Origin: an uncultured Bacteroidales bacterium
GTDB taxonomy: Bacteria; Bacteroidota; Bacteroidia; Bacteroidales; JALTDM01
DNA length: 64,000 nt
NCBI GenBank assembly: GCA_964421355.1
Contig: CAYQWX010000002.1
Location: forward strand, 10,241 to 74,240
Reading direction: 5' to 3'
Part shown: one piece after another, positions 1,037-17,118 of the stretch
Layout of the letters: the number at the start of each line of letters is the position of its first letter
How positions within the stretch are numbered: position 1 is the stretch's first letter
Notes under the pieces: model-generated
Told to the model about the DNA's origin: nothing
Databases searched by the model: none
What the model saw: the letters and a program-made list of their open reading frames with translations, nothing else
Made by a program: the position numbers and the translations under genes

Positions 1037-1041
1037 AATAA

Positions 1042-3231
1042 ATGGAAAAAAGTAGGAATGTAAGATTCTTTATTAGCTCTATATTAAATAGTTATTCTCA
1101 AACATTTTTTGCAGAGGATAACTATTTATTTTCCTTATTATTACTATTTACAAGTTTTTTTGACTTATGGTTAGGAATATATGGATTAGTATCGGTATTA
1201 GCTGTCAATAGTGTAGCTTATTTGTTAGGATACAACAAATATTTTATAGAAAAAGGACTATACGGATTTAACGCCTTACTTGTCGGAATAGGTATAGGAG
1301 TATTGTATGTCCCTTCTACTACACTATTAGTAATAATTATATTTTCAGTATTACTCACCTTATTTTTAACCATAGCATTACAGGGAATATTAGGCAAATA
1401 CGGACTTCCATATTTGAGTATCCCTTTTATTGTAGTAATGTGGATTGTGATAATGGCAACGCGAAACTTCCCCGCTCTTGGGCTTGCAGAAAGAGGAATA
1501 TATACATACAATGAGCTATATGCATTAGGTGGCAACAAACTTGTAGAATTATACAACTGGTTAGCGGCACTCCCTGTTGCAAAAAGTATTAAAACATATT
1601 TCTACTCATTAGGAGCAATTTATTTTCAAAACAATATTCTTACAGGAATAATTACAGCAATTGGTTTAATATATTTTTCTCGTATTGCTTTTTCTTTATC
1701 TGTGTTAGGTTTTTATATAGCATATTTGTTTTACCAACTGGTGGGAGGAGACTTTTATGCACTATCTTACACATTTATTGGATTTAATTACATACTTACA
1801 GCCATAGCAATAGGAGGATATTTTTTAGTTCCTTCAAAAACATCATATCTATGGGTAATATTATTACTGCCAATTACTGTATTGCTTACATTTGGCTTAT
1901 CTGCAATGTTGTCAATATGGAGTTTAAGCATTTATTCACTTCCTTTCAATATTATTGTTTTGCTGTTTATATATAGTCTAAAATTAAGAACATCTAAAAA
2001 CAAACATTTGGAAGACAATTTTGTGAGACTAAAAAATCCTGAACAAACATTATATTTATACAAAACTGTTACGGAAAAATTTAAATCGGAAAATTACATT
2101 CCGATAAACCTTCCTTTCAAAGGAGAATGGCAAGTAATGCAAGGACACAATGGGAAATACACTCACAAAGACGAATGGCAACATGCGTGGGATTTTGTAA
2201 TAATAGACGAAAACGGAAAATCATACAAAAACAAAGGAGACTATTGCGAAGACTATTATTGTTATGGAAAACCGGTATTTGCTCCATATTACGGATATGT
2301 AGTAGGAATAGCCGATGGAATACCAGACAACGCAATAGGAGAAGTAAACACTGAACAAAACTGGGGAAACACTATAGTAATAAAACATAGTGAATATTTA
2401 TATTCACAAGTAAGTCATTTAAAGTCCGGAAGCATAAAAGTCAAAATAGGAGATTATGTGAAAAAAGGAGATATGATTGGAGTAGTTGGTAATTCGGGAC
2501 ACTCTCCTTATCCTCACTTACACTTTCAATTACAAGCATTCCCTCATATAGGCTCAAAAACTATAGACTATCCTTTGCATAATTACATAAGGATAAAAAA
2601 TAACCTAAAAGATTTAATAATATTTGGTAAACCTGAGGAAAACGAAATAATATCTCCTACAACACCTGACAATATTCTGAAAGAAACTGTCAAGTTTATT
2701 CCCGGCAAGGTATTAGAGGTATTTAGCAATAATAATCCAAATACACGAAAATGGCTAATTTCAAAAGATATTTATAATCAGACATTTATTGTAGACAAAA
2801 ATACTAATTCATATATTTATTTTTATTCAAACGAAGTAGGAATATTCTTTACAAACTTTAAGGGAGACACAAAATCAGATTTATTTATGCTTTTTCAAGC
2901 AATATATAATTTACCTGTCGTTATAGATAAAAATATAAGTATATCAAATAAGATAAGACCTGATTTGTTTTTCAAAAAACACATTATGTGGATACAAGAT
3001 TTTGTTGCACCATTCATTATTTTTTCAAAAGTGAAATATACAATATCATATATTTCTAAAGATGATGAACTTTTTCCAACACAAGTTACCTTAAAATCAA
3101 ATATGGAAAAAACCATTTTTAACAAAAGCATACAACAAACGGAATATTATATAACAATAACCAAACAAGGCATTGTTGAAATAAAAAATAAAAAAACATC
3201 ACAAACTCTAACAATAAACATGAAAAAATGA
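1042..3231 (+). CDS. Fusion protein: N-terminal urea-transporter (UT) family membrane domain, M23 metallopeptidase domain, and an uncharacterised C-terminal region of about 210 aa
   Basis: The N-terminal ~320 aa are polytopic with two UT-like repeats (SQTFFAEDN... and LGAIYFQNNILTGIITAIGLIYFS). The M23 blocks are QHAWDF, NTIVIKHSEYLYSQVSHL and GNSGHSPYPHLHFQL (HxH). The gene starts 5 nt after the upstream stop. Confidence 0.7.
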   Translation: MEKSRNVRFFISSILNSYSQTFFAEDNYLFSLLLLFTSFFDLWLGIYGLVSVLAVNSVAYLLGYNKYFIEKGLYGFNALLVGIGIGVLYVPSTTLLVIIIFSVLLTLFLTIALQGILGKYGLPYLSIPFIVVMWIVIMATRNFPALGLAERGIYTYNELYALGGNKLVELYNWLAALPVAKSIKTYFYSLGAIYFQNNILTGIITAIGLIYFSRIAFSLSVLGFYIAYLFYQLVGGDFYALSYTFIGFNYILTAIAIGGYFLVPSKTSYLWVILLLPITVLLTFGLSAMLSIWSLSIYSLPFNIIVLLFIYSLKLRTSKNKHLEDNFVRLKNPEQTLYLYKTVTEKFKSENYIPINLPFKGEWQVMQGHNGKYTHKDEWQHAWDFVIIDENGKSYKNKGDYCEDYYCYGKPVFAPYYGYVVGIADGIPDNAIGEVNTEQNWGNTIVIKHSEYLYSQVSHLKSGSIKVKIGDYVKKGDMIGVVGNSGHSPYPHLHFQLQAFPHIGSKTIDYPLHNYIRIKNNLKDLIIFGKPEENEIISPTTPDNILKETVKFIPGKVLEVFSNNNPNTRKWLISKDIYNQTFIVDKNTNSYIYFYSNEVGIFFTNFKGDTKSDLFMLFQAIYNLPVVIDKNISISNKIRPDLFFKKHIMWIQDFVAPFIIFSKVKYTISYISKDDELFPTQVTLKSNMEKTIFNKSIQQTEYYITITKQGIVEIKNKKTSQTLTINMKK

Positions 3232-4550: not shown

Positions 4551-5168
4551 ATGAAACAAATAGCAGTATTATTTAGTTTAGTATTAGCCACTTTGTCTTA
4601 TACAATGGCTCAAACAAATGAAGAGGCAGTTGTCAATGCTTTTAAAAAAAGTTATGAGATTGAAAAACAAGGTAATTACAAAAAGGCTGCAGACGAACTA
4701 AAAAAAGTATATTCCGAAGATTCTTACGAAATTAATTTGCGGTTAGGTTGGCTTACTTATAATGCAGGGCTTTTTCAAGAGTCTGCAAGTTATTACCAAA
4801 AAGCCGTTACTCTAAAACCTTACTCCGAAGAAGCAAGATTCGGGCTTATTAATCCTCGTGCTGCACAAGCTAAATGGTCGGAAGTAATAAATATTTATAA
4901 AAAAATCCTTGAAATAGATCCTAATAATACCATTGCCAATTATAAACTTGGACTTATATATTATGGACAAAAAAAATATTCAGATGCCAAACCATTATTT
5001 GAAAAAATAGTAAATCTCTATCCTTTTGACCACGATGGATTACTTATGCTTGCTTGGACATATTACTATATGGGACAAAAAAACAAAGCAAAAGTGTTGT
5101 TTTACAAAACATTAATGAATAACCCTTATGACAAATCGGCTCAGGAAGGTTTGTCTTTAATTAAATAG
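4551..5168 (+). CDS. Periplasmic tetratricopeptide (TPR) repeat protein
   Basis: Signal peptide MKQIAVLFSLVLATLSYTMAQ followed by several TPR-like units (YQKAVTLKPYSEEA, YKKILEIDPNNTIANYKLGLIYYGQKKYSDAKPLFEKIVNLYP). Confidence 0.75.
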   Translation: MKQIAVLFSLVLATLSYTMAQTNEEAVVNAFKKSYEIEKQGNYKKAADELKKVYSEDSYEINLRLGWLTYNAGLFQESASYYQKAVTLKPYSEEARFGLINPRAAQAKWSEVINIYKKILEIDPNNTIANYKLGLIYYGQKKYSDAKPLFEKIVNLYPFDHDGLLMLAWTYYYMGQKNKAKVLFYKTLMNNPYDKSAQEGLSLIK

Positions 5169-5170
5169 TC

Positions 5171-5764
5171 ATGTTTGGCATATTTTACAAATTAGGTGTT
5201 TTCCACATAATCAATATAGAAGCATACGACCATATTCTGTTTGTAACAATGTTGGTTGCTGTATATCGTATTAAACAGTGGAAACAAGTATTAGCTTTGG
5301 TTACGGCTTTTACAATAGGACACAGCATTAGTTTAGCTTTAGCTACTTTTGATATTATGTCTTTGCCTTCGGATTTGGTAGAGTTTTTAATTGCCGTTAC
5401 AATTTTTCTTACAGGATTGGAGAACCTATTATTCAAAGTTCCTCAAGGAGATAACATATTTTCTTTAAGTTATTGGATAAAATATGGTATTGCCATGTTT
5501 TTTGGCTTAATACATGGCCTTGGATTTTCCACTACATTAAAAAATATTCTTTTGGATTCGTCGTCAGTAATTACTCCCTTATTAGGGTTCAATCTTGGAG
5601 TAGAAACGGGACAAATAATAGTAGTATTCGTGGTTCTTATTTTAATTTTCTTACTTACTAATGTATTAAAAATAAAACATAAATACATTATGTGGACGCT
5701 ATCTGTGATAGGAATTATTATTTCTATTTTGCTAATGTATTATAGGGGAATAGAAATATTATAA
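5171..5764 (+). CDS. HupE/UreJ-like (HupE_UreJ_2 type) integral membrane protein
   Basis: N-terminal FHIINIEAYDHILFV motif, GHSISLALA, GLIHGLGFS and GVETGQ blocks, about 6 TM helices. It starts 2 nt after the upstream stop and a hairpin follows the gene. Confidence 0.7.
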   Translation: MFGIFYKLGVFHIINIEAYDHILFVTMLVAVYRIKQWKQVLALVTAFTIGHSISLALATFDIMSLPSDLVEFLIAVTIFLTGLENLLFKVPQGDNIFSLSYWIKYGIAMFFGLIHGLGFSTTLKNILLDSSSVITPLLGFNLGVETGQIIVVFVVLILIFLLTNVLKIKHKYIMWTLSVIGIIISILLMYYRGIEIL

Positions 5765-5773
5765 ATATAAAAA

Positions 5774-5798
5774 GCCGTCCCTAACTTAAAGAGACGGC
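5774..5798. terminator. Stem-loop between the convergent HupE-like gene (+) and rpmE2 (-)
   Basis: gccgtccc / gagacggc stem with one mismatch. The T-run is on the minus-strand side, so it is a better fit as the rpmE2 terminator. Confidence 0.5.
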
Positions 5799-5830
5799 AT
5801 AAAAACAAACTTAAAAATCCTCTCCTTCGT

Positions 5831-6085
5831 TTATTTTTTCTTAAAATTCTTATAACGGTTATAGAATTTATCAACTCTACCTGCAGAGTCAACCAATTTC
5901 ATCTTACCTGTGAAAAACGGATGAGAAGTATTGGATATTTCAACCTTTACCAATGGATATTCCACACCGTCAATTTCAATAGTGTCTTTTGTCCTTGCGG
6001 TAGAGCGAGTAATAAATGTATAGCCGTTTGAAATGTCTTTGAAAACAACTAACCTGTAGTTTTTTGGATGTATTTCCTTTTTCAT
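5831..6085 (-). CDS. rpmE2: 50S ribosomal protein L31, type B (no CxxC zinc motif)
   Basis: [17 protein letters not shown]...[25 protein letters not shown] is the characteristic L31 sequence and the zinc-binding cysteines are absent. Confidence 0.9.
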
Positions 6086-6121
6086 TTTTATTTCTTTTTA
6101 ATGTTCCACACAATCTTTTAG

Positions 6122-6194
6122 TGAACGTGGCAGGGGTCGAACCTGCAACCTACGGCTTAGAAGGCCGTTGCTCTATCCATTGAGCTACACGTCC
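6122..6194 (-). tRNA. tRNA-Arg (anticodon UCU)
   Basis: The reverse complement folds by hand as GGACGTG TA GCTC AATGGATA GAGC A ACGGC CTTCTAA GCCGT AGGTT GCAGG TTCGACC CCTGC CACGTTC A. The acceptor has 7 bp (one G-U), the T-loop is TTCGA, and no CCA is encoded. Confidence 0.9.
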
Positions 6195-6270
6195 ATCACT
6201 TAAAAAAGTGCTGCAAAGATAATACTTTTTATTTTAACTAAAATTAAATTTTTAACAAAAAAATGTAAAA

Positions 6271-6291
6271 ACAGGAAGTTTTTCTTCCTGT
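6271..6291 (-). terminator. Rho-independent terminator downstream of hutU
   Basis: acaggaag / cttcctgt 8-bp stem with T/A runs on both sides, 20 nt past the hutU stop. Confidence 0.6.
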
Positions 6292-6310
6292 TTTTATAGC
6301 TAAGAAAAAA

Positions 6311-8305
6311 TTAAAAAATATTCTCTATTATATTATCATCCACTATGTTAGGAAATGTTATTTGCAATTCTGGAGTTCTTTTCATTTCCCGTTCAATGGC
6401 AAACATTGCTCCTTTGTTTCTAGCCCAACTCCTTCTTGTTATTCCATTATTTACATCCCAAAACAACATTCTTTGTATTCTAATATCGGTTTCAGGAGTG
6501 CCATCAAGCACCATACCGAACCCTCCGTTTATTACTTCTCCCCAACCTACGCCGCCACCATTATGTAACGATACCCAAGTTGCTCCTCTAAATGCATCTC
6601 CAACAAAGTTGTGAACTGCCATATCTGCAGTAAAACGTGAACCGTCATAAATATTAGATGTTTCCCTGTATGGAGAATCTGTCCCAGATACATCATGATG
6701 ATCTCTACCTAATACAATTGGTGCGGATATTATTCCATCTCTTATAGCCTTATTAAAACGTAATGCTATTTTTATCCTACCTTCTGCATCGGCGTACAAA
6801 ATACGGGCTTGTGAACCAACTACTAAATTGTTTGGACCTGCTTCTTTTATCCAATGTATGTTGTCATAAAGTTGATTTTTTATTGGTTCCGGAGCATCGG
6901 TATATATTTCTTCCAATACTTCTTGAGCTATTTTGTCTGATTTTTCCAAATCTTTAGGGTCTCCAGAAGTACATACCCAACGGAAAGGACCAAATCCATA
7001 ATCAAAAAACAAAGGGCCCATTATATCTTCTACATAAGAAGGATAAATAAATCTTCCGTTTGGTTTTACTATATCTGCACCTGCTCTACTTGCTTGCAAC
7101 AAAAAGGCATTACCATAGTCAAAAAAGTACATTCCGTTTTTATGAAGTTCATTTATTGCAGCTATTTGTCTTCTTAATGATTCATGTACTTTTTCTTTAA
7201 ATTGTTCGGGATTGTTTGCCATCATGTATTGTGCCTCTTCCATAGTCAATCCCACCGGATAATATCCTCCCGAATAAGGAATATGCAATGATGTTTGATC
7301 AGATCCTAAATCAACCTTTACACCTTTCTTTACAAGGTATTCCCACAGATCCACAACATTGCCAAGATAACCGATGGACAAAGCTTCTTTTGCTTTTCGT
7401 GCTTGTTCTGCTCTACTCAACACTTTATCCAAATCGTCATATATCTCGTCCACCCAACCTTGGGAGTGCCTTTTTTCTATTGCTTTAGGGTTAATTTCTG
7501 CAATTATCCCTACTATCCCTGCTATACGACTTGCTTTTGCTTGTGCACCAGACATTCCTCCCAAGCCGGAAGATACAAATAATTGACCTCTAATATCCCT
7601 GCTACCCGTAATCATTCTTGCTGCATTCATTACTGTAATGGTAGTTCCGTGTACTATTCCTTGTGGTCCTATATACATATATGAACCCGCTGTCATTTGT
7701 CCATATTGAGTTACTCCCAAAGCATTGTATCTTTCCCAATCGTCTAATTTAGAATAATTTGGTACCATCATTCCATTTGTTACTACAACTCTTGGTGCTT
7801 CTTTGTGTGAAGGAAATAATCCTAGCGGATGCCCCGAATACATAACCAAAGTTTGTTCGTCGGTCATGGTGGCCAGATACTTCATGGTAAGAAGATATTG
7901 TGCCCAGTTTTGAAATACCGAACCGTTACCTCCATAAGTAATGAGTTCGTGTGGGTGTTGTGCCACAGCAGGATCTAAATTATTTTGTATCATTACCATT
8001 ATAGCTGCTGCTTGTTTTGATTTATACGGATATTCGTCTATTGGTCGGGCATACATTTCATAGTCAGGTCTAAACCTGTACATGTATATCCTTCCATATT
8101 TTTCCAGTTCTTCCTTAAACTCTTTTGCCAATACTTCATGCCATTCTTTTGGAAAATACCTTAAACCATTTTTTAATGCTAATTTTTTTTCTTCTTTTGT
8201 TAGTATGTCTTTTCTCCTTGGTGCATGATTTACAGTTGTATCATAAGGCTTAGGGTCCGGTAATTTTTCCGGAATACCTTGTAATATTGCTTTTTTTAAG
8301 TCCAT
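6311..8305 (-). CDS. hutU: Urocanate hydratase (urocanase)
   Basis: Full-length match in character to urocanases (~660 aa), with GGMSGAQ, GLGGMSGAQAKA and DHHDVSGTDSPYRETS blocks. Confidence 0.95.
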   Translation of the reverse strand: MDLKKAILQGIPEKLPDPKPYDTTVNHAPRRKDILTKEEKKLALKNGLRYFPKEWHEVLAKEFKEELEKYGRIYMYRFRPDYEMYARPIDEYPYKSKQAAAIMVMIQNNLDPAVAQHPHELITYGGNGSVFQNWAQYLLTMKYLATMTDEQTLVMYSGHPLGLFPSHKEAPRVVVTNGMMVPNYSKLDDWERYNALGVTQYGQMTAGSYMYIGPQGIVHGTTITVMNAARMITGSRDIRGQLFVSSGLGGMSGAQAKASRIAGIVGIIAEINPKAIEKRHSQGWVDEIYDDLDKVLSRAEQARKAKEALSIGYLGNVVDLWEYLVKKGVKVDLGSDQTSLHIPYSGGYYPVGLTMEEAQYMMANNPEQFKEKVHESLRRQIAAINELHKNGMYFFDYGNAFLLQASRAGADIVKPNGRFIYPSYVEDIMGPLFFDYGFGPFRWVCTSGDPKDLEKSDKIAQEVLEEIYTDAPEPIKNQLYDNIHWIKEAGPNNLVVGSQARILYADAEGRIKIALRFNKAIRDGIISAPIVLGRDHHDVSGTDSPYRETSNIYDGSRFTADMAVHNFVGDAFRGATWVSLHNGGGVGWGEVINGGFGMVLDGTPETDIRIQRMLFWDVNNGITRRSWARNKGAMFAIEREMKRTPELQITFPNIVDDNIIENIF

Positions 8306-8489
8306 AACAAAAATATTTTTTTGCTAAATTAATATTTTTTAAGCACTCATAGAGCATTGATGAAAATAATTTGTTATTATAAAAAATGAGAACATTTTTT
8401 GAAACAAATTTATTTTTGAAATAGATACAATTTCATTTTATTTTTTATTTAATTTGCAATTGAAAAACTAATAAAAAATATGTTATAAT

Positions 8490-8669
8490 ATGGAAGCAAA
8501 AGAACAAAAAGTATTAGAAGCAATGAAAAAAGCGGGAAAAGAACTTAAAACCGCCGACATATCCGAGCTTAGTGGTATAGATAAAAAAGAAGTATCAAAA
8601 ATTATTTCAAATCTTAAAAAGGTTGGACTTATAGAAAGTCCGAAACGTTGCTATTACAGAGCTAAATAA
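8490..8669 (+). CDS. Small (59 aa) winged-helix/HTH-like protein; missed by the 60-aa ORF cutoff
   Basis: Hand translation gives MEAKEQKVLEAMKKAGKELKTADISELSGIDKKEVSKIISNLKKVGLIESPKRCYYRAK. It has an HTH-like core (TADISELSGIDKKEVSKIISNLKK), a clean ATG and TAA, and a hairpin follows. Confidence 0.5.
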   Translation: MEAKEQKVLEAMKKAGKELKTADISELSGIDKKEVSKIISNLKKVGLIESPKRCYYRAK

Positions 8670-8683
8670 GATTGAACAAAAAT

Positions 8684-8706
8684 CCCCTCTTCTTTTTGAG
8701 GAGGGG
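8684..8706. terminator. Bidirectional stem-loop between the small wHTH ORF (+) and dapB (-)
   Basis: cccctcttc ttttt gaggagggg, a 9-bp stem including one G-U. Confidence 0.6.
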
Positions 8707-8730
8707 AGGATAAAATCTTTAATATTTTTT

Positions 8731-9462
8731 CTACTTTTGAAAATCTCTTAATAAATCTTCCATAGAGAAGCAGCCTTTTTTATCTTTCACAAATTCAGCT
8801 GCTATAATTGCTCCTTGAGCGAATCCATCTCGTGAATATGCCTTGTGTTGTAGAGATATTTCATCAATATCAGATTTGTATGTAATTGTGTGAGTACCAA
8901 TGGTTTCTTCCTCCCTTATTGATTTTATTGGAAGTATATCTTTTTGTTTTATAGTGGTTTCTGCAAGTTGCCAATTAGTATATAAGGCATGATTATTCAT
9001 TATTTGTTCTGCTATAGTTATGGCGGTGCCGCTTGGCTTATCTTTTTTGTGAATATGGTGTATCTCTTCTATTTCAGCCTGATATTGTGAAATATTATTC
9101 ATAAGTTTTGCAAGAAACTTATTTACTTCAAACAGAATATTTACTCCAAGACTAAAATTACTGGTATAAAAAAATGTTGCATTTTTTTCTTTACAATATT
9201 TTTCTATTTCTTCTTTTTTATCTAGCCATCCCGTTGTGCCAGATACTACAGGAATGCCTGCATCAAAGCATTTTTTATAATTTTCAGGGGCAGATTTGGG
9301 TTGCGTAAACTCTATAACCACATCGGCTTTTTGTAAATCTTGCAACGAAATATTATCTACATTATCTATATCAATAATGTTTCCTATAGTGTGGTTTCGT
9401 TTTTTAGCCCATTTTTCTACGGCTTTGCCCATTTTTCCATATCCCCAAATGATAATATTCAT
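8731..9462 (-). CDS. dapB: 4-hydroxy-tetrahydrodipicolinate reductase
   Basis: MNIIIWGYGKMGKAV Rossmann N-terminus and HHIHKKDKPSGTA (the E/HxHHxxKxDxPSGTA signature). I chose the start at the ATG at 9462 rather than the tracked 9489, because the extension is not DapB-like and a -7 box lies in it. Confidence 0.9.
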   Translation of the reverse strand: MNIIIWGYGKMGKAVEKWAKKRNHTIGNIIDIDNVDNISLQDLQKADVVIEFTQPKSAPENYKKCFDAGIPVVSGTTGWLDKKEEIEKYCKEKNATFFYTSNFSLGVNILFEVNKFLAKLMNNISQYQAEIEEIHHIHKKDKPSGTAITIAEQIMNNHALYTNWQLAETTIKQKDILPIKSIREEETIGTHTITYKSDIDEISLQHKAYSRDGFAQGAIIAAEFVKDKKGCFSMEDLLRDFQK

Positions 9463-9478
9463 GTTTATATATTTTTTA

Positions 9479-9486
9479 CAAATATA
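9479..9486 (-). promoter_or_regulatory. Bacteroidota -7 promoter box (TATATTTG on minus strand) for dapB
   Basis: Matches TAnnTTTG, 17 nt upstream of the chosen dapB ATG. Confidence 0.4.
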
Positions 9487-9665
9487 CACAAATGCTTTTT
9501 AAATCAATTACGGGATTTATTTGAAGTTTTGACCTGTTACTACTTTTATTCTACTTCAAAAGTGGTAATGAAAATTAAATTATTTATAATCAATGTAATA
9601 TTTCTTTACTAAAAGTTAATTTGAACACTAATGTACAGCGTAAATTTTCTTTTTTTTTGTTAAAA

Positions 9666-9686
9666 AATCACTACTGTCCGATAAAA
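9666..9686. repeat. Left terminal inverted repeat of the IS remnant
   Basis: See the mobile_element entry; 19/21 match to the reverse complement of 10500-10520. Confidence 0.7.
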
Positions 9687-9771
9687 ACAGAAAATAATAG
9701 ATATCAATTCTTAATACACTGATAATCAGTATCTAATTTTTCTAAGAGAAGTGTTTTCAAAAGTAAGTTCC

Positions 9772-10218
9772 TCAAAACAAAGAAGGTTTCAACAACTCAT
9801 CATAAGTTTTTTGCCAATCTTTCTCAGGATTTTCTAAAAATCGTATCAGATGGATGTAATTGAACAGATGTATTTTACAAAAACTGACCAAATTGGAAAA
9901 TGCCCACTTTCTTTTTATGGTTTTCTGAATCACGGTCATCAGCAAATTGGCAATAAAAGCACAATATATCTGTATCTTAATGGCATTCTCATTGTCTCCG
10001 AGGAAATATTTTAGCGGAAAATTTTGTTTCAACTGCTTAAAGAGTAATTCTATTTGCCAACGAAGTTTATAAATAGCCGCAATCCAATCTGCTCTGAGTT
10101 CAAACAGGTTGGTTAAAAACTCAAACCTTCTTTTCTGGTTTCTATCATAAAACTGCACCTTACGAAGTTTTAACGGGCGTGAAGTGTTGTTGATTTTTAC
10201 CTGAACTTCCCAACCCAA
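9772..10218 (-). pseudogene. Truncated IS4-family DDE transposase (C-terminal ~148 codons only)
   Basis: Contains the IS4 Y(2)R(3)E(6)K signature (YKLRWQIELLFKQLK). There is no ATG, the frame is closed by an in-frame stop 4 codons upstream (10231-10233), and the N-terminal DD part is missing. Confidence 0.8.
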
Positions 10219-10499
10219 GTATGGCTTAGCTTACTTCTCGCAAAGAAGTACATTTGGCCAAAGAACAGAAAACCATACTTATCAGATAATCATTTGTCTT
10301 AAATTTCTTAATATAATGGTCTGATTGGTACTTTTTTAAGTCCTGTCAATTATCATATTATCAATTAAGGAAAATCAGCTGTCCGAAAACCGATGTGCCG
10401 AAAAAATGTGTTTTGCCTATATCTTCAATTTTTTAGGGAAAATTAAAGATATAAAAAAGCGGAAAATCCTTTTCTGGAAATCCCGCTTTTGAAAAAAAC

Positions 10500-10520
10500 T
10501 TTTATCGGACAACAGTGATT
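10500..10520. repeat. Right terminal inverted repeat of the IS remnant
   Basis: See the mobile_element entry. Confidence 0.7.
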
Positions 10521-10561
10521 AAATAACTTAATTGTTACACTTACTAATTGAATTTATGGGC

Positions 10562-10569
10562 TATATTTG
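10562..10569 (+). promoter_or_regulatory. Candidate -7 promoter box (TATATTTG) upstream of the pgk-pgk fusion
   Basis: Matches TAnnTTTG but lies about 140 nt upstream of ATG 10712, a longer leader than at the other genes here. Confidence 0.3.
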
Positions 10570-10711
10570 CTACTTTGTATAATTTTTGAAAAAATAGTTG
10601 GAACGCTATTGTGATATTAAAATAGTATTGCAAAGATATCATTCATTATAATTTTTTAATATAGCTTTGTGCAATTGTCAATTTGAGAAAATATTTTTTG
10701 TTATGTATTCA

Positions 10712-13093
10712 ATGGATAAGTATAATTTTAAAGGGAAAAAAGTATTAGTTAGAGTTGATTTTAATGTTCCCCTTGATGAAAATCAAGAGGTTACAGATGA
10801 TACTAGGATAATAGCATCTCTACCTACCATATTAAAAATACTTACTGAAGGAGGAGCTGTTATTTTAATGACTCATATGGGGCGTCCCAAAGGCAAATAT
10901 GTTCCTGAATTATCCACCAAGCCTTTAATACCTACTTTATCTCGGTTATTAGGAAGGGAAGTTAAGTTTGCTCCGGATTGTATAGGAGAAGAAGTGGAAC
11001 AATTGTCCAAGTTGTTGAATCCGGGAGAAGTTATGTTACTTGAAAATCTTCGTTTTTATCCTGAAGAAACAAAAGGGGATGAGGAATTTGCAAAAAAACT
11101 TGCACGATTGGGAGACGCTTATGTAATGAATGCTTTTGGAACAATACATAGAAAGCATGCTTCTACTTATACAATTGCAAAATTTTTTCCTTATGATAAG
11201 TTATTTGGTTCTCTTGTAGAGAGTGAGATAAATCACTTGGATAAAGCACTTAAAAATCCTGAGCGTCCGTTTACTGCTATTATAGGTGGGTCCAAGGTTT
11301 CTACCAAAATAGGTATAATAGAAAATTTATTGCCAAAAGTAGATAACTTAATTATAGCAGGAGGAATAGTATATACATTTATTAAAGCACAAGGAGGACA
11401 GATAGGAGATTCGTTGGTTGAAGACGATTATATAGATGTTGCACTACAAATAATAGAAAAAGCAAAAAAATACCATGTAAACCTTATTTTGCCGATAGAT
11501 GCTTTGGTTGCGGATAAATTTTCCAATGATGCTGAAATACAACATTATCCTGTAGATAAAATACCGGAAGGATGGATGGGACTTGATATTGGTATAAAGT
11601 CCCAAACATTGTTTATGAATGTGATAGAAAAATCCAAAACTATTTTATGGAATGGACCTATTGGAGTATTTGAATTTGAAAATTTTTCGGCAGGAACTCT
11701 TCGTGTAGCATTAGCAGTGGCACGTTCTACCGATTTGGGGGCATATTCTATTGTGGGTGGAGGTGATTCTGTAGCTGCAATAAATAAATTTAATCTTAAT
11801 AATAGGATAAGTTATATCTCTACTGGTGGCGGAGCAATGCTTGAATATGTAGAAGGAAAAACGCTTCCAGGTATTGCAGCGATTAAAGAATCTTTCTCAA
11901 TAGATAATGTTGATTTTAATAACAAAAAAGTTCTTATGCGGGTGGACTTCAATGTTCCTTTAAATGAAAAGGGAGAAATTATGGATGATACCCGTATCGT
12001 TACGGCGTTGCCAACCATAGTGAAAATATTGAGTGAAGGTGGAGCTGTAATACTTCTTTCTCATTTAGGAAGACCAAAAGGGCAATATATACCTGAGTTG
12101 TCTAACAAGCACCTCATACCTTATTTATCCAAAGCTCTAAATAAAGAAATAAAATTTGCACCTGATTGTGTGGGGTCAGAAGTGGAAAAGATGGCTAAAG
12201 AGTTAAATTCTGGAGATGTATTATTGCTTGAAAATCTTCGTTTTCATCCTGAGGAAACAAAGGGAGATGACGAGTTTGCTAAAAAGCTTGCACGTCTTGG
12301 TGATATATATGTGATGAATGCTTTTGGTACGGTTCATCGTTATCATTCTTCGGTTTATCATATTGCAAAGTATTTTGAAGGGAGAAGATATTTCGGATAT
12401 TTGGTAGAAAGCGAAATGCACCATATAGACAGGGCATTACATCATTCAGGAAAGCCTTTTACTGCAATTATAGGAGGTTCTAAAATATCAACTAAGATAC
12501 AGATTATTAAAGCATTACTTAATAGAGTAGATAACTTGTTGATTGCAGGAGGCATTGCCAATAATTTTATAAAAGCAATGGGTGGAAAGATTGGAAATTC
12601 AATAGTTGAAGATAAATATTTGCATGATGCTTTGGAAATATTGGAGCTTGCAAAAAAGAAAAATGTGAATATTTATTTACCTATTGATTCTGTAACTGTA
12701 AATAAATTTCCTAATTATACCGAAATAGAACATCATCCAAGTAATAAAATTCCTATTGGTCAAATATCAATAGATATTGGGATAAAGACTCAAACACAAT
12801 TTATGAATATAATAGAAAACTCTAAAACCGTGTTGTGGAATGGACCAATGGGAGTGTTTGAGATAGATGATTTTGCTAATGGAACACTCAGAGTTGCATT
12901 AGCAGTAGCCAGAGCTACCGATCTTGGAGCATATACTATTGTGGGAGGAGGAGATACTACTTCTGCTCTTAATAAGTTCCATTTGTTGCAAAGGATTAGC
13001 TATATATCTACTGCCGGTGGAGCTTTGCTTGAATATATAGAGGGGAAAGAATTACCTGGTATTAAAGCTATAAAAGGTAATTTCGATAAGTAA
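10712..13093 (+). CDS. pgk: Tandem phosphoglycerate kinase fusion (two complete PGK units in one ORF)
   Basis: Unit 1 runs about 10712-11890 and unit 2 about 11900-13090. Each has [27 protein letters not shown](I/V)HR.H.S, GGSK(V/I)STKI, WNGP(I/M)GVFE and GGGD(S/T). There is no stop, frameshift or internal Met at the junction (...[29 protein letters not shown]...). Start chosen at ATG 10712 ([10 protein letters not shown]); ATG 10703 is also possible. Confidence 0.9.
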
Positions 13094-14160: not shown

Positions 14161-15657
14161 TTACTTTACAAAATCAAAATTATAATTCTTTATGAAGTCA
14201 ATAGATTTATTTATGAGACTATACATTACTACATCATTTTCTACAAATGGTACCTGTTTTCTAAACTCTTTAAGCAGATTTTGTAATACGAAAGATGTTT
14301 GTTCTTTTCTGAAAAATAATCCTTGAGATGCAGTAAATAGTTCAATGCCAAAAACTTTATAAACATTATCGATTATTTTTAGTGCTTTGGTTGCAGCATT
14401 TGCCCCCATGCTTACATGGTCTTCTTGTCCTTGTGAAGACTCTATGGAGTCTATTGAAGCCGGTGTGGCATATTGTTTATTTTGGCTTACTATGGCTGCT
14501 GAGGTGTATTGTGCAATCATAAATCCTGAGTTTAAGCCGGGATTGGCAACTAAAAACGAGGGAAGTTCCCTTTTGCCTGCTATGAGACGATAAATACGAC
14601 GTTCGGATATATTAGCAAGTTCTGATATGGCAATACTCAATACATCCATTGCTATTGATAAAGGTTGTCCGTGAAAGTTGCCACCAGATATAATTAAATT
14701 ATCATCAGGGAAAACCATAGGGTTGTCTGTAGCAGAGTTCATTTCCGTTTCCACTACTTTTTCTACATAAGCAAGAGCATCTCTTGTGGCACCATGCACT
14801 TGTGGCATGGTTCTAAATGAATAAGGGTCTTGTACATGCTGTTTTTTACGCCTTATAAGGTTGCTACCATCCAGTATTTTTACAACATTATTTGCTACTG
14901 TTTTTTGTCCTGAATGGGGGCGAGCATTGTGTATTTGTGGATAAAACGGTTCCAATCTTCCGTCGTATGCTTCTAATGATAATGTTCCTACTACATCGGC
15001 TATTTTTACTAACTTTTTGGCATTTATGACATTCCAAACAGCATAAGCAAGCATAAATTGGGTGCCATTTAACAAAGCTAAACCTTCTTTTGATTCTAAT
15101 TTTAATGGGCTGATGTTTAGTTTCTTATATAGTTTTTCTGTTGGTGATTTTTCATTGTTGTATATTACTTCTCCAAGACCTATTAGTGGTAAAGCTAAGT
15201 GGGCAAGTGGAGCCAAATCTCCAGATGCTCCTAACGAACCTTGTTCATAAACTACAGGAATAATATTATTGTTGAAGAAATATAATAACCGTTCTACCGT
15301 TGCCAAACGTATTCCGGAATAACCATAAGATAATGATTGTATTTTTAGTAATATCATTAGTTTTACTATATGTGTAGGTACTTGATTTCCTACCCCACAA
15401 GCGTGTGATTTAATTAGGTTTTCTTGTAATGTGCCTAAATCTTTTTTTGATATTGATTGATTGTATAGAGCTCCAAATCCTGTGTTTATACCATAAATAG
15501 GTTTTTCTTCTTGTTCCAATTTATCTTCCAAAAACGTTCTGGATTTGATTATACGCTTTTTAGCATCTTCAGAAAGAGCTAATTTTTTGTTTTCTTTTAA
15601 TATATTTTCAATATCTGTAAATGATATTTTTGATGTGATTTGGAAAATGTTATTCAT
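14161..15657 (-). CDS. hutH: Histidine ammonia-lyase
   Basis: GSLGASGDLAPLAHL (the Ala-Ser-Gly MIO-forming triad) and overall HAL-like sequence. Start set at ATG 15657 (MNNIFQITSK). The tracked 64-codon extension overlaps the trkA promoter region and contains a -7 box. Confidence 0.95.
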   Translation of the reverse strand: MNNIFQITSKISFTDIENILKENKKLALSEDAKKRIIKSRTFLEDKLEQEEKPIYGINTGFGALYNQSISKKDLGTLQENLIKSHACGVGNQVPTHIVKLMILLKIQSLSYGYSGIRLATVERLLYFFNNNIIPVVYEQGSLGASGDLAPLAHLALPLIGLGEVIYNNEKSPTEKLYKKLNISPLKLESKEGLALLNGTQFMLAYAVWNVINAKKLVKIADVVGTLSLEAYDGRLEPFYPQIHNARPHSGQKTVANNVVKILDGSNLIRRKKQHVQDPYSFRTMPQVHGATRDALAYVEKVVETEMNSATDNPMVFPDDNLIISGGNFHGQPLSIAMDVLSIAISELANISERRIYRLIAGKRELPSFLVANPGLNSGFMIAQYTSAAIVSQNKQYATPASIDSIESSQGQEDHVSMGANAATKALKIIDNVYKVFGIELFTASQGLFFRKEQTSFVLQNLLKEFRKQVPFVENDVVMYSLINKSIDFIKNYNFDFVK

Positions 15658-15687
15658 AATTATAATTTTACCTTGTTCTTTATATTG

Positions 15688-15695
15688 CAAATCTA
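15688..15695 (-). promoter_or_regulatory. -7 promoter box (TAGATTTG on minus strand) for hutH
   Basis: TAnnTTTG match 31 nt upstream of ATG 15657. Confidence 0.5.
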
Positions 15696-15748
15696 CATAA
15701 AAACAAAAAACAAAGTTATTAGTGATAACAATAAAAATATTTTTACTA

Positions 15749-15756
15749 TACATTTG
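15749..15756 (+). promoter_or_regulatory. -7 promoter box (TACATTTG) for trkA-trkH
   Basis: TAnnTTTG match 22 nt upstream of ATG 15778. Confidence 0.5.
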
Positions 15757-15777
15757 CACCGTAAAAAATTTTTGTTT

Positions 15778-17118
15778 ATGAAAATAACAATTGCAGGAGC
15801 AGGAGAGGTAGGTACGTTTCTTACAGAGCTTTTGGACAGGGATAATCATGATATAATTGTAATAGATGTAGATGAGGAGAGGTTAAATTATATAAATTCA
15901 AATTATGATGTATTAACTGTATTGGGGTCTGTATCATTTTTTAGTGTGCTGGAGGAGGCAAAGGTTAAGAATACGGATATTTTTATTGCAGTAACCTGTG
16001 ATGAACATGTAAATCTTGTGGCATCTTCTCTTGCTAAGCAGATGGGAGCCAAGCGTTCTATTGCACGGATAAATAGTCTGGAATATACATACAGTAAGAA
16101 TAAGCGACATTTTAAGAGTCTTGGAATAGATAATCTTATAAGTCCCAATAAGTTGATGACAGATGAGATAGTTAGTTTAATAAAAAGGACAACATCAAAC
16201 GAAGTTGTGGAGTTTTCTAAAGGAGAGTTGTCTTTGTTTGTTACACGGCTTACTAAAGATTCAAAAGTAATAGGAAAAACACTTAAAGAAACGGATGAAT
16301 TAAATCCCGATTTTGAATTTAGGGCACTTTTACTAATGAGAGATAATAAGGCTTTTATTCCGAAAGCAGATGATGTGTTTCAGGAAAATGATGTAGTATA
16401 TGTTATTTCTCATAAGCATGGGTTGAATAGGTTATTGGAGATATCGGGGCAAACACCTTTGTCTATTAAAAAAATAATGATACTTGGAGGAGGTACAATA
16501 GGGAAATTAACAGCATATCAGTTGGAAAAAAAGTATGATGTAAAGCTTATAGAGAAAGATAGAGAAAAATGTGAAGATTTAGCAGATTTTCTTAATGATA
16601 CACTTATACTTAATGCGGATGGTAGGGATATAGATTTGCTTAAACAAGAAGGGCTCGATGATATGGATGCGTTTATTGCTGTAACGGGTAATTCGGAAAC
16701 AAATATTTTTACTTCTTTGATTGCAAGAAATTATAATGTGCCGCGTATAATAACAGAAGTGGAGAATGTGGATTTTATAAAAATATCCAAAGACCTTAAG
16801 ATAGAGGGAATAATAAATAAGAAACTGATTACGGCAAGTCACATAACACGCTATACAATACGGGCAGATATAATTTCTGTTAAATTACTCAATACTGTTA
16901 ATGCTGATATTATAGAGGTGATAGCTCGTCCTGAGTCTAAGATTACCAAATACCCTATAAAAGACTTACATTTACCCAAAGGAATTATAATTGGAGGAGT
17001 AATAAGGGGCAATGAGAGTTTTATTGCTGTGGGGAATACCAAAATAGAACCGGGAGATATTGTTGTATTGCTGGTAATGCCGAATAAACTATATGAAATA
17101 GAAAAATTATTTACTTAA
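15778..17118 (+). CDS. trkA: Trk potassium uptake system, NAD-binding peripheral subunit TrkA
   Basis: Two RCK/KTN units, each starting with a Rossmann motif (MKITIAGAGEVG and IMILGGGTIG). Start set at ATG 15778. Confidence 0.9.
   Translation: MKITIAGAGEVGTFLTELLDRDNHDIIVIDVDEERLNYINSNYDVLTVLGSVSFFSVLEEAKVKNTDIFIAVTCDEHVNLVASSLAKQMGAKRSIARINSLEYTYSKNKRHFKSLGIDNLISPNKLMTDEIVSLIKRTTSNEVVEFSKGELSLFVTRLTKDSKVIGKTLKETDELNPDFEFRALLLMRDNKAFIPKADDVFQENDVVYVISHKHGLNRLLEISGQTPLSIKKIMILGGGTIGKLTAYQLEKKYDVKLIEKDREKCEDLADFLNDTLILNADGRDIDLLKQEGLDDMDAFIAVTGNSETNIFTSLIARNYNVPRIITEVENVDFIKISKDLKIEGIINKKLITASHITRYTIRADIISVKLLNTVNADIIEVIARPESKITKYPIKDLHLPKGIIIGGVIRGNESFIAVGNTKIEPGDIVVLLVMPNKLYEIEKLFT

Follow-up and report, generated by a model that had tools for sequence, protein, structure and literature searches.

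Phosphoglycerate kinase (PGK) is a textbook monomeric hinge-bending enzyme, and canonical PGKs contain one unit per polypeptide. In a 64-kb stretch of DNA from an uncultured Bacteroidales bacterium (contig CAYQWX010000002.1, positions 10,241 to 74,240; the whole stretch of 64,000 nucleotides is called the window below), two PGK units are instead encoded in one open reading frame (ORF) of 793 or 796 amino acids (aa), depending on the start codon. A preliminary description, made by reading the sequence alone, had proposed two complete PGK units fused in one ORF, and this is what the analysis found: the complete gene spans positions 10703 to 13093 of the forward strand, stop codon included, encodes 796 aa in a single frame, and matches the Pfam family PF00162 twice. 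The ORF listing gives a single forward-strand ORF from 10667 to 13093 (808 aa if counted from a TTG), within which an ATG at 10703 yields 796 aa with the N terminus MYSMDKYNF and an ATG at 10712 yields 793 aa. Translation likely starts at the ATG at 10703, because this N terminus agrees with the homologue consensus MxSIDNYNF and because P0001, a 796-aa protein from ENA contig ERZ27262668:k141_559830 that is identical to the window protein, begins at the same codon. Residue positions of the window protein are given in the 793-aa numbering (ATG at 10712).

Unit 1, the N half (aa 1 to 396, positions 10712 to 11899), and unit 2, the C half (aa 397 to 793, positions 11900 to 13090), lie on the same forward strand. 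The full protein gives two PF00162 matches, and when the halves were scanned separately each covered positions 1 to 379 of the 379-position profile, as had been predicted; the N half scored 519.6 bits and the C half 477.9 bits (cut-off, 27 bits). BLASTP aligned aa 1 to 396 with aa 397 to 793 without gaps, with 263 of 395 positions identical (67%) and 85% positives. The halves are thus collinear over the whole PGK length, as first seen by hand alignment; the computed identity falls slightly above the 60 to 65% estimated at that stage. Nucleotide identity between the halves is 67% overall and 46% at third codon positions; at four-fold degenerate sites it is 42%, where composition alone predicts 35%. 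The longest exact in-register run is 18 nucleotides, and the Nei-Gojobori proportion of synonymous differences (pS) is 0.70. Synonymous sites between the halves are near saturation, with four-fold sites close to the composition background, which bears out the heavy synonymous difference reported initially and makes the duplication old at the nucleotide level. A recent duplication or an assembly collapse, both of which the preliminary description had discounted, is ruled out by the 67% nucleotide identity, the saturated synonymous sites, and a junction common to at least 117 independent homologous assemblies; collapse of a repeat is impossible because 33% of nucleotides differ between the halves.

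The junction between the units (aa 390 to 401, positions 11879 to 11914, forward strand) was read in the DNA. It is free of stop codons, and of in-frame ATG, GTG, or TTG codons until a Met just before the second RVDFNVP motif, and the linker (AIKESFSID) is effectively about 3 to 5 residues long, which confirms the earlier account of a junction of about 3 residues lacking a stop or a Met. The second unit retains residues matching the start of the first unit (S-x-D-x-x-[ND]-F), so the fusion would have cost essentially the stop and start codons alone. The two RVDFNVP motifs are 396 residues apart in the window and 395 to 402 residues apart in 117 homologues (396 in 95 of the 117), and the linker motif of these homologues, [KR][QE][SN][FYL][ST][IV]D, is invariant in length. 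Because at least 117 independently assembled homologues keep an uninterrupted junction, an assembly artefact can be excluded without recourse to reads, and a frameshift or stop at the window junction is, on these sequences, not credible.

These homologues came from a search of 5.8 billion proteins, from which the best 120 matches were taken (ENA, JGI, NCBI, and Logan assemblies). Among the 120, 118 are 779 to 808 aa long and 57 to 83% identical to the window protein over 98 to 100% of the query, and at least 117 independent homologues of about 794 aa share both the architecture and the junction of the window gene. The window gene itself has every feature by which the family is defined: a length of about 794 aa, two PGK units, a spacing of about 396 residues, and the linker AIK[QE]S[FY]S[IV]D. 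The few named homologues belong to metagenome-assembled genomes (MAGs) labeled "Bacteroidales bacterium," "Marinilabiliales bacterium," or "Bacteroidota bacterium," and the proteins, which are present in NCBI nr, are labeled just "phosphoglycerate kinase" or "hypothetical protein." The window sequence is itself part of a 90-kb ENA metagenome contig. A GTDB scan used a junction-spanning alignment, and its conserved patterns also matched single PGKs, which filled the listing; among the species-representative matches listed, the only complete tandem was L002 (Bacteroidales MAG GH38, JAQIBY01), with L006 giving a remnant followed by an intact unit. No cultured organism with a tandem PGK was found among the matches listed. 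On these sequences, the architecture marks out a large clade of Bacteroidales-like bacteria, all uncultured as far as the matches listed show.

No description of a PGK-PGK tandem was found in full-text literature searches or in a 2020 review of PGK (PMC7729029). The suggestion that the tandem was undescribed therefore stands for the literature but not as a claim of uniqueness, the architecture being common in this uncultured clade and its sequences already in nr. It is undescribed in the literature that was searched, is public under generic annotation, and is a variant of a known enzyme.

For comparison at the level of residues, 234 halves, obtained by splitting family proteins at the second RVDFNVP motif, were aligned with human PGK1, Thermotoga maritima PGK, and Geobacillus stearothermophilus PGK. 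What we take to be the human PGK1 sequence was used solely for numbering (D23, N25, R38, H62, R65, R122, R170, K215, K219, N336, E343, and D374). The site for 3-phosphoglycerate (3-PG) and 1,3-bisphosphoglycerate (1,3-BPG), comprising D23, N25, R38, H62, R65, R122, and R170, is intact in both window halves, and across the family the 3-PG basic patch is present in 116 to 117 of 117 N halves and in all 117 C halves. K215, K219, N336, E343, and D374 are also intact in both window halves, together with the GGSK, WNGPxGVFE, and GGGD loops. In the window protein the corresponding residues are D16, N18, R32, H55, R58, R114, R147, K195, K199, N314, E321, and D352 in the N unit, and D412, N414, R428, H451, R454, R510, R543, K591, K595, N710, E717, and D748 in the C unit. 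Every 3-PG basic-patch and nucleotide-site block that had been listed for the two halves was found in the alignment, and a check for loss of activity-critical residues in one half found all checked positions retained in both.

Nearly all halves in the family, like the two in the window, have the checked residues and also the glycine loops, apart from the G236A and G394A changes. Canonical PGKs have an STGGGA loop where the tandem family has STAGGA (G394A), and the nucleotide/Mg/phosphoryl-transfer set is complete in both window halves except for this family-wide state, which the C half carries. The window N unit has STGGGA, as do its three closest relatives (P0002 to P0004), in what looks from the sequences like a reversion within that subclade. 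Constraint is similar on the two units. In comparison with the closest homologue, P0002 (83% identical; GCA_054035535.1), the proportion of nonsynonymous differences (pN) is 0.108 and pS is 0.79 in the N half, while pN is 0.128 and pS is 0.81 in the C half; both window halves are under strong, similar purifying selection.

An AlphaFold2 model, run with a 66-sequence family alignment, folded each half as a PGK. The mean predicted local distance difference test (pLDDT) score was 84.7, with values mostly of 80 to 95 in the N half and 75 to 95 in the C half; the linker (aa 390 to 401) was the sole segment with pLDDT below 50, and the predicted template modeling score (pTM) was 0.59. In a Foldseek search of the PDB, 50 of the 50 matches listed were PGKs, each aligned to roughly one half of it, with template modeling (TM) scores of about 0.47 when normalized to the query and 0.80 to 0.95 when normalized to the target; no tandem PGK structure was among the PDB matches listed. 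Canonical monomeric PGKs such as those of G. stearothermophilus (1PHP) and T. maritima (1VPE) share with each unit the fold, the length of about 395 aa, the motifs, and the catalytic residues, and structure alignments of these two with the window N unit gave 50 to 51% identity and target-normalized TM scores of 0.89 to 0.93. Both halves are accordingly modeled with the two-lobed hinge-bending fold. The proposal that the units might pack as a pseudo-dimer fared less well, the model providing two confident PGK folds but no confident packing, and no inter-unit arrangement can be claimed because of the low linker pLDDT and the pTM of 0.59.

The history of the halves was examined with a neighbor-joining tree (200 bootstraps) to which 20 single PGKs were added, 14 from Bacteroidota/Chlorobiota genomes and 6 from the nearest cluster representatives. 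All Bacteroidales-type fused halves, together with the single PGK of locus L004, form a clade with 99% bootstrap support. Of 238 fused halves, 232 have the G394A state (STAGGA or SSAGGA); of 130 single PGKs, that of L004 alone has it and 124 read STGGGA. The 99% clade, the G394A state, and the fixed junction support a single origin of the Bacteroidales tandem.

A single duplication followed by independent divergence into a clean N clade and a clean C clade is contradicted by the same tree and by identity matrices. Monophyly of the N halves and monophyly of the C halves each received 0% bootstrap support, and the N half of P0099 has its own C half as its sister, with 98% support. When the N and C halves of one lineage are compared, their identity in most subgroups is 0.70 to 0.73, higher than the value of about 0.66 for N-N or C-C comparisons across lineages. 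Some lineages also have unusual residues in their N and C halves alike, such as MGIG and GGGLTYTFSKA in P0099 or Q..FMN and TDLG in the window subclade. Orthology was kept in the P0031, P0059, P0066, and L002 groups, where C halves cluster at 94% and N halves at 57%. These patterns indicate that N and C halves have not diverged independently. The old duplication proposed in the preliminary description is therefore upheld, but not the simple divergence afterwards, as halves resemble each other more within a lineage than they resemble their counterparts across lineages.

Any homogenization between halves is old. In the window, P0002, and P0099, the two halves use identical synonymous codons at a rate close to background, by which recent gene conversion is rejected at the DNA level. 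In P0099 the last 100 residues are 93 to 100% identical between halves with synonymous sites still saturated, and in the window synonymous identity is mildly raised at codons of about 91 to 120 and about 271 to 315 only. Because synonymous sites are saturated between halves, homogenization would have been ancient and followed by strong constraint. It could have occurred by gene conversion or by collapse and re-duplication; alternatively, the halves could have been selected to match.

One-sided changes in catalytic residues mark particular lineages. K215Q (GGSQ) is found in eight C halves (P0015, P0027, P0050, P0052, P0057, P0062, P0063, and P0071), and in the P0031/P0059 group the N halves carry N336D (WDGP) together with GGDK and HWGRP. 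N336D was counted in 17 N halves (16 read WDGP in the motif scan), GGDK in 12, and HWGRP in 13. These sequences suggest that, in such lineages, one of the two units is on its way to becoming a pseudo-enzyme or to acquiring a new function. At locus L006 (uncultured Bacteroidia RUG13712, a rumen MAG), a 638-aa ORF at positions 5275 to 7191 has a decayed first unit, consisting of the C-domain motifs GGDK, WNGT, and DGDD, before an intact PGK with an internal insertion; decay of a tandem or duplication of only part of the gene could account for this arrangement. At locus L004 (uncultured Bacteroidales binchicken_co291_93, positions 5098 to 6288), a genuine single 396-aa PGK with STAGGA is nested in the tandem clade, clustering with the N halves of the window's subgroup at 70% bootstrap. 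Either one unit was lost secondarily here or the form that preceded the fusion has survived. Recombinational collapse of a tandem, which would leave an N-like 5' end and a C-like 3' end, was considered for L004 and found no support; the protein is N-like along its whole length, with 10 N-type and 3 C-type diagnostic sites and no polarity, and is thus not an obvious N/C recombinant.

A PGK-PGK protein outside this clade, P0122 (locus L083, positions 8001 to 10394), is 797 aa long with a G+C content of 0.69, comes from a high-GC organism, and is encoded on a 358-kb ENA metagenome contig, with tpiA immediately after it. Like the window protein, it has a near-zero linker (ALTV, then LPFRTLRDL, compared to an N terminus of MPFRSIKDL) and canonical motifs in both halves. 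Unlike the window protein, it retains STGGGA and a pgk-tpiA arrangement, and it is 44% identical to the window N-half query. The two P0122 halves are 72 to 73% identical and are mutual sisters at 100% bootstrap, far outside the Bacteroidales clade. Because its own halves are sisters outside the clade, STGGGA is kept, and the context is pgk-tpiA, P0122 has a separate origin, and the sequences indicate that the PGK-PGK architecture arose at least twice. Separately, the representative search returned two very long multi-PGK proteins, P0126 (1,031 aa, Bulinus truncatus) and P0131 (1,918 aa, five PGK stretches); P0126, and possibly P0131, may reflect gene models in which neighboring pgk copies were merged, and not true fusions.

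We favor, with a probability of roughly 0.68, the reading that the window gene encodes a covalent double PGK with two predicted active sites. The product would be one chain of about 88 kDa with two complete PGK units head to tail, each complete with a hinge, an N-domain for binding 3-PG/1,3-BPG, and a C-domain for binding nucleotide. Residues, selection, and conservation point to both units being catalytically competent, and the double PGK would probably serve as the cell's ordinary glycolytic and gluconeogenic PGK. Both chain termini of a PGK lie in the N-domain; because of this and the linker of 3 to 5 residues, the two N-domains would be adjacent, the short linker holding them side by side with both C-domains free to close. 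Such a gene would have originated in an ancestor of the clade, when pgk was duplicated in tandem and the stop codon ending copy one and the start codon opening copy two disappeared, would have been kept since, and would have had its halves homogenized in several lineages by ancient intragenic gene conversion or re-duplication.

Several observations weigh against this reading. The window C half is the more derived unit near the nucleotide pocket. It carries GQISIDIG in place of the usual motif, its IVYTF segment is also replaced, and HRYHSS stands in place of the usual HRAHAS (HRKHAS in the window N half). Around the adenine pocket it is non-canonical (W to Q, G312S, L313I, and F241N). Some of the C-half changes are common to the closest relatives, and others are unique to the window. 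Since the substituted sites lie near the adenine pocket, there is room for a modified C-half function, and the changes could alter or weaken it. Elsewhere in the family a catalytic residue has been lost in one half (K215Q, N336D, or GGDK) and the first unit of L006 has decayed; because some lineages lost a residue or a unit, two active sites are not always required. The structure model, for its part, offers no confident inter-unit arrangement.

Most of these observations would also fit a subfunctionalized or neofunctionalized tandem, in which one unit, probably the N unit in the window, remains an efficient PGK while the other has shifted to a regulatory or stabilizing role or an altered nucleotide preference, in parallel with mammalian hexokinase I, one half of which became regulatory. 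The lower profile score of the C half, its changes close to the adenine pocket and hinge (subclade-specific or unique to the window), the asymmetric catalytic losses elsewhere (in eight C halves for K215Q, in N halves for N336D with GGDK), and L006, where just the first unit is decayed, all fall on its side. Yet all checked catalytic, 3-PG-binding, and phosphate-binding residues are intact in both window halves, constraint is near equal (pN of 0.108 and 0.128), and most family members have canonical motifs in both halves, so that we regard a shifted half as unlikely in the window.

A further, doubtful possibility is that the units form an obligate co-evolving pair and not two redundant enzymes, either as a pseudo-heterodimer in which hinge closure or occupancy of one unit regulates the other or as units tuned to opposite flux directions or to different nucleotides. 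The lineage-specific residues shared by two halves whose synonymous sites are saturated might then reflect selection for matched halves and not just gene conversion, a proposal that we put forward just as tentatively.

The tandem could also be an accessory paralogue, specialized or conditional, with a canonical single pgk elsewhere in the genome performing the housekeeping role; this would overlap with the other two readings, an ordinary double PGK and a tandem with a shifted half. The tandem locus has no glycolytic neighbors, and canonical single PGKs are widespread in Bacteroidota. Against this, pgk is commonly a stand-alone gene in Bacteroidota, no second PGK was found in the 64-kb window, and the strong purifying selection and conserved active sites would be expected if this were the only, essential PGK; we consider an accessory role quite improbable. 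Last, the fusion might not be real: erroneous sequencing or assembly at the junction might have joined two adjacent genes, or the second unit might normally be translated by itself from an internal start. An in-frame Met in the linker of one related lineage and a 400-aa database entry that equals a C half would speak for this, but it is scarcely believable. At least 117 independent assemblies have an open frame and an equally long linker at this point, the window junction lacks any in-frame ATG, GTG, or TTG, and a 33% nucleotide difference separates the halves.

The lineage with the in-frame Met is that of P0059 (795 aa), whose linker reads IKAIMESFSIDDYNF. NCBI entry P0300 (MDD2387315.1, 400 aa, "phosphoglycerate kinase") is just the C half of P0059, so that for some tandem genes the annotation shows one half only. 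Annotation thus carries a lesson of its own, with tandems under plain "phosphoglycerate kinase" labels and at least one present in NCBI as its C half alone.

The double PGK favored above can be compared with known forms of the enzyme. The forms described in a review of the enzyme (PMC7729029) are monomers, archaeal oligomers, the Thermotoga fusion of PGK with triosephosphate isomerase (PGK-TIM), and protist multidomain or "dead" PGKs. In Thermotoga PGK-TIM (fus; NF010569), PGK is likewise extended covalently at its C terminus by a glycolytic enzyme. NF010569 was the top NCBIfam match of the window protein; its best stretch covered positions 9 to 393 of 645, the PGK part alone, and Pfam found no TIM domain, by which a PGK-TIM fusion was rejected. 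The multidomain and "dead" PGKs of Kinetoplastea and other protists (PMC7729029) likewise have large ORFs, some with lost catalytic residues, recalling the K215Q and WDGP lineages. However, protist PGKs are fused to unrelated domains (PAS, cyclic-nucleotide-binding domains, or membrane segments) and not to a second PGK, and both window units are intact.

Whole-gene tandem duplication followed by in-frame fusion is the mechanism shared with hexokinases and HisA/HisF. The hexokinases offer the best functional analogy: among the 100-kDa mammalian enzymes, both halves are active in hexokinase II, and one half is regulatory in hexokinase I. These belong to another enzyme family and another domain of life, and the comparison with them and with HisA/HisF serves as a working analogy, with no homology claimed. 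Gene elongation, of which HisA/HisF is an example, has been reviewed elsewhere (PMC7284861).

A natural covalent PGK dimer would allow coupling, mutual stabilization, or division of labor between units to be tested. The family amounts to a natural duplication-fusion experiment in which intact pairs, one-unit catalytic changes, a decayed remnant, and a single-unit member occur together, along with a signal of concerted evolution between halves of one gene. The tandem settles no long-standing question, and its bearing on enzymology and on the evolution of duplicated and fused genes is moderate.

The tandem gene is flanked on one side by an insertion sequence (IS) remnant together with dapB, and on the other by a glycosyltransferase gene and histidine-utilization genes. 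The decayed IS element noticed upstream in the preliminary description is there, as a truncated transposase on the opposite strand (positions 9772 to 10218, reverse strand, 148 aa) that lies 485 bp upstream and matches DDE_Tnp_1 over positions 117 to 197 of 200 only (E = 1.3e-9). The intergenic region between them (positions 10219 to 10702, forward strand) is AT-rich with no ORF called, and the promoter and leader of the tandem gene are presumed to lie here. Genes for urocanase (hutU, about 6310 to 8304, reverse strand) and a histidine/aromatic ammonia-lyase (hutH-like, 14161 to 15849, reverse strand) flank the pgk region and are separated by dapB, the IS remnant, the tandem pgk gene, and the glycosyltransferase gene; the hut genes were possibly split up by rearrangement. 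Farther upstream, a 729-aa ORF at about 1041 to 3230 on the forward strand (positions 339 to 2528 of L001) joins a urea transporter domain (PF03253) to Peptidase_M23 (PF01551), an unusual-looking pairing, with HupE/UreJ-like and TPR genes nearby.

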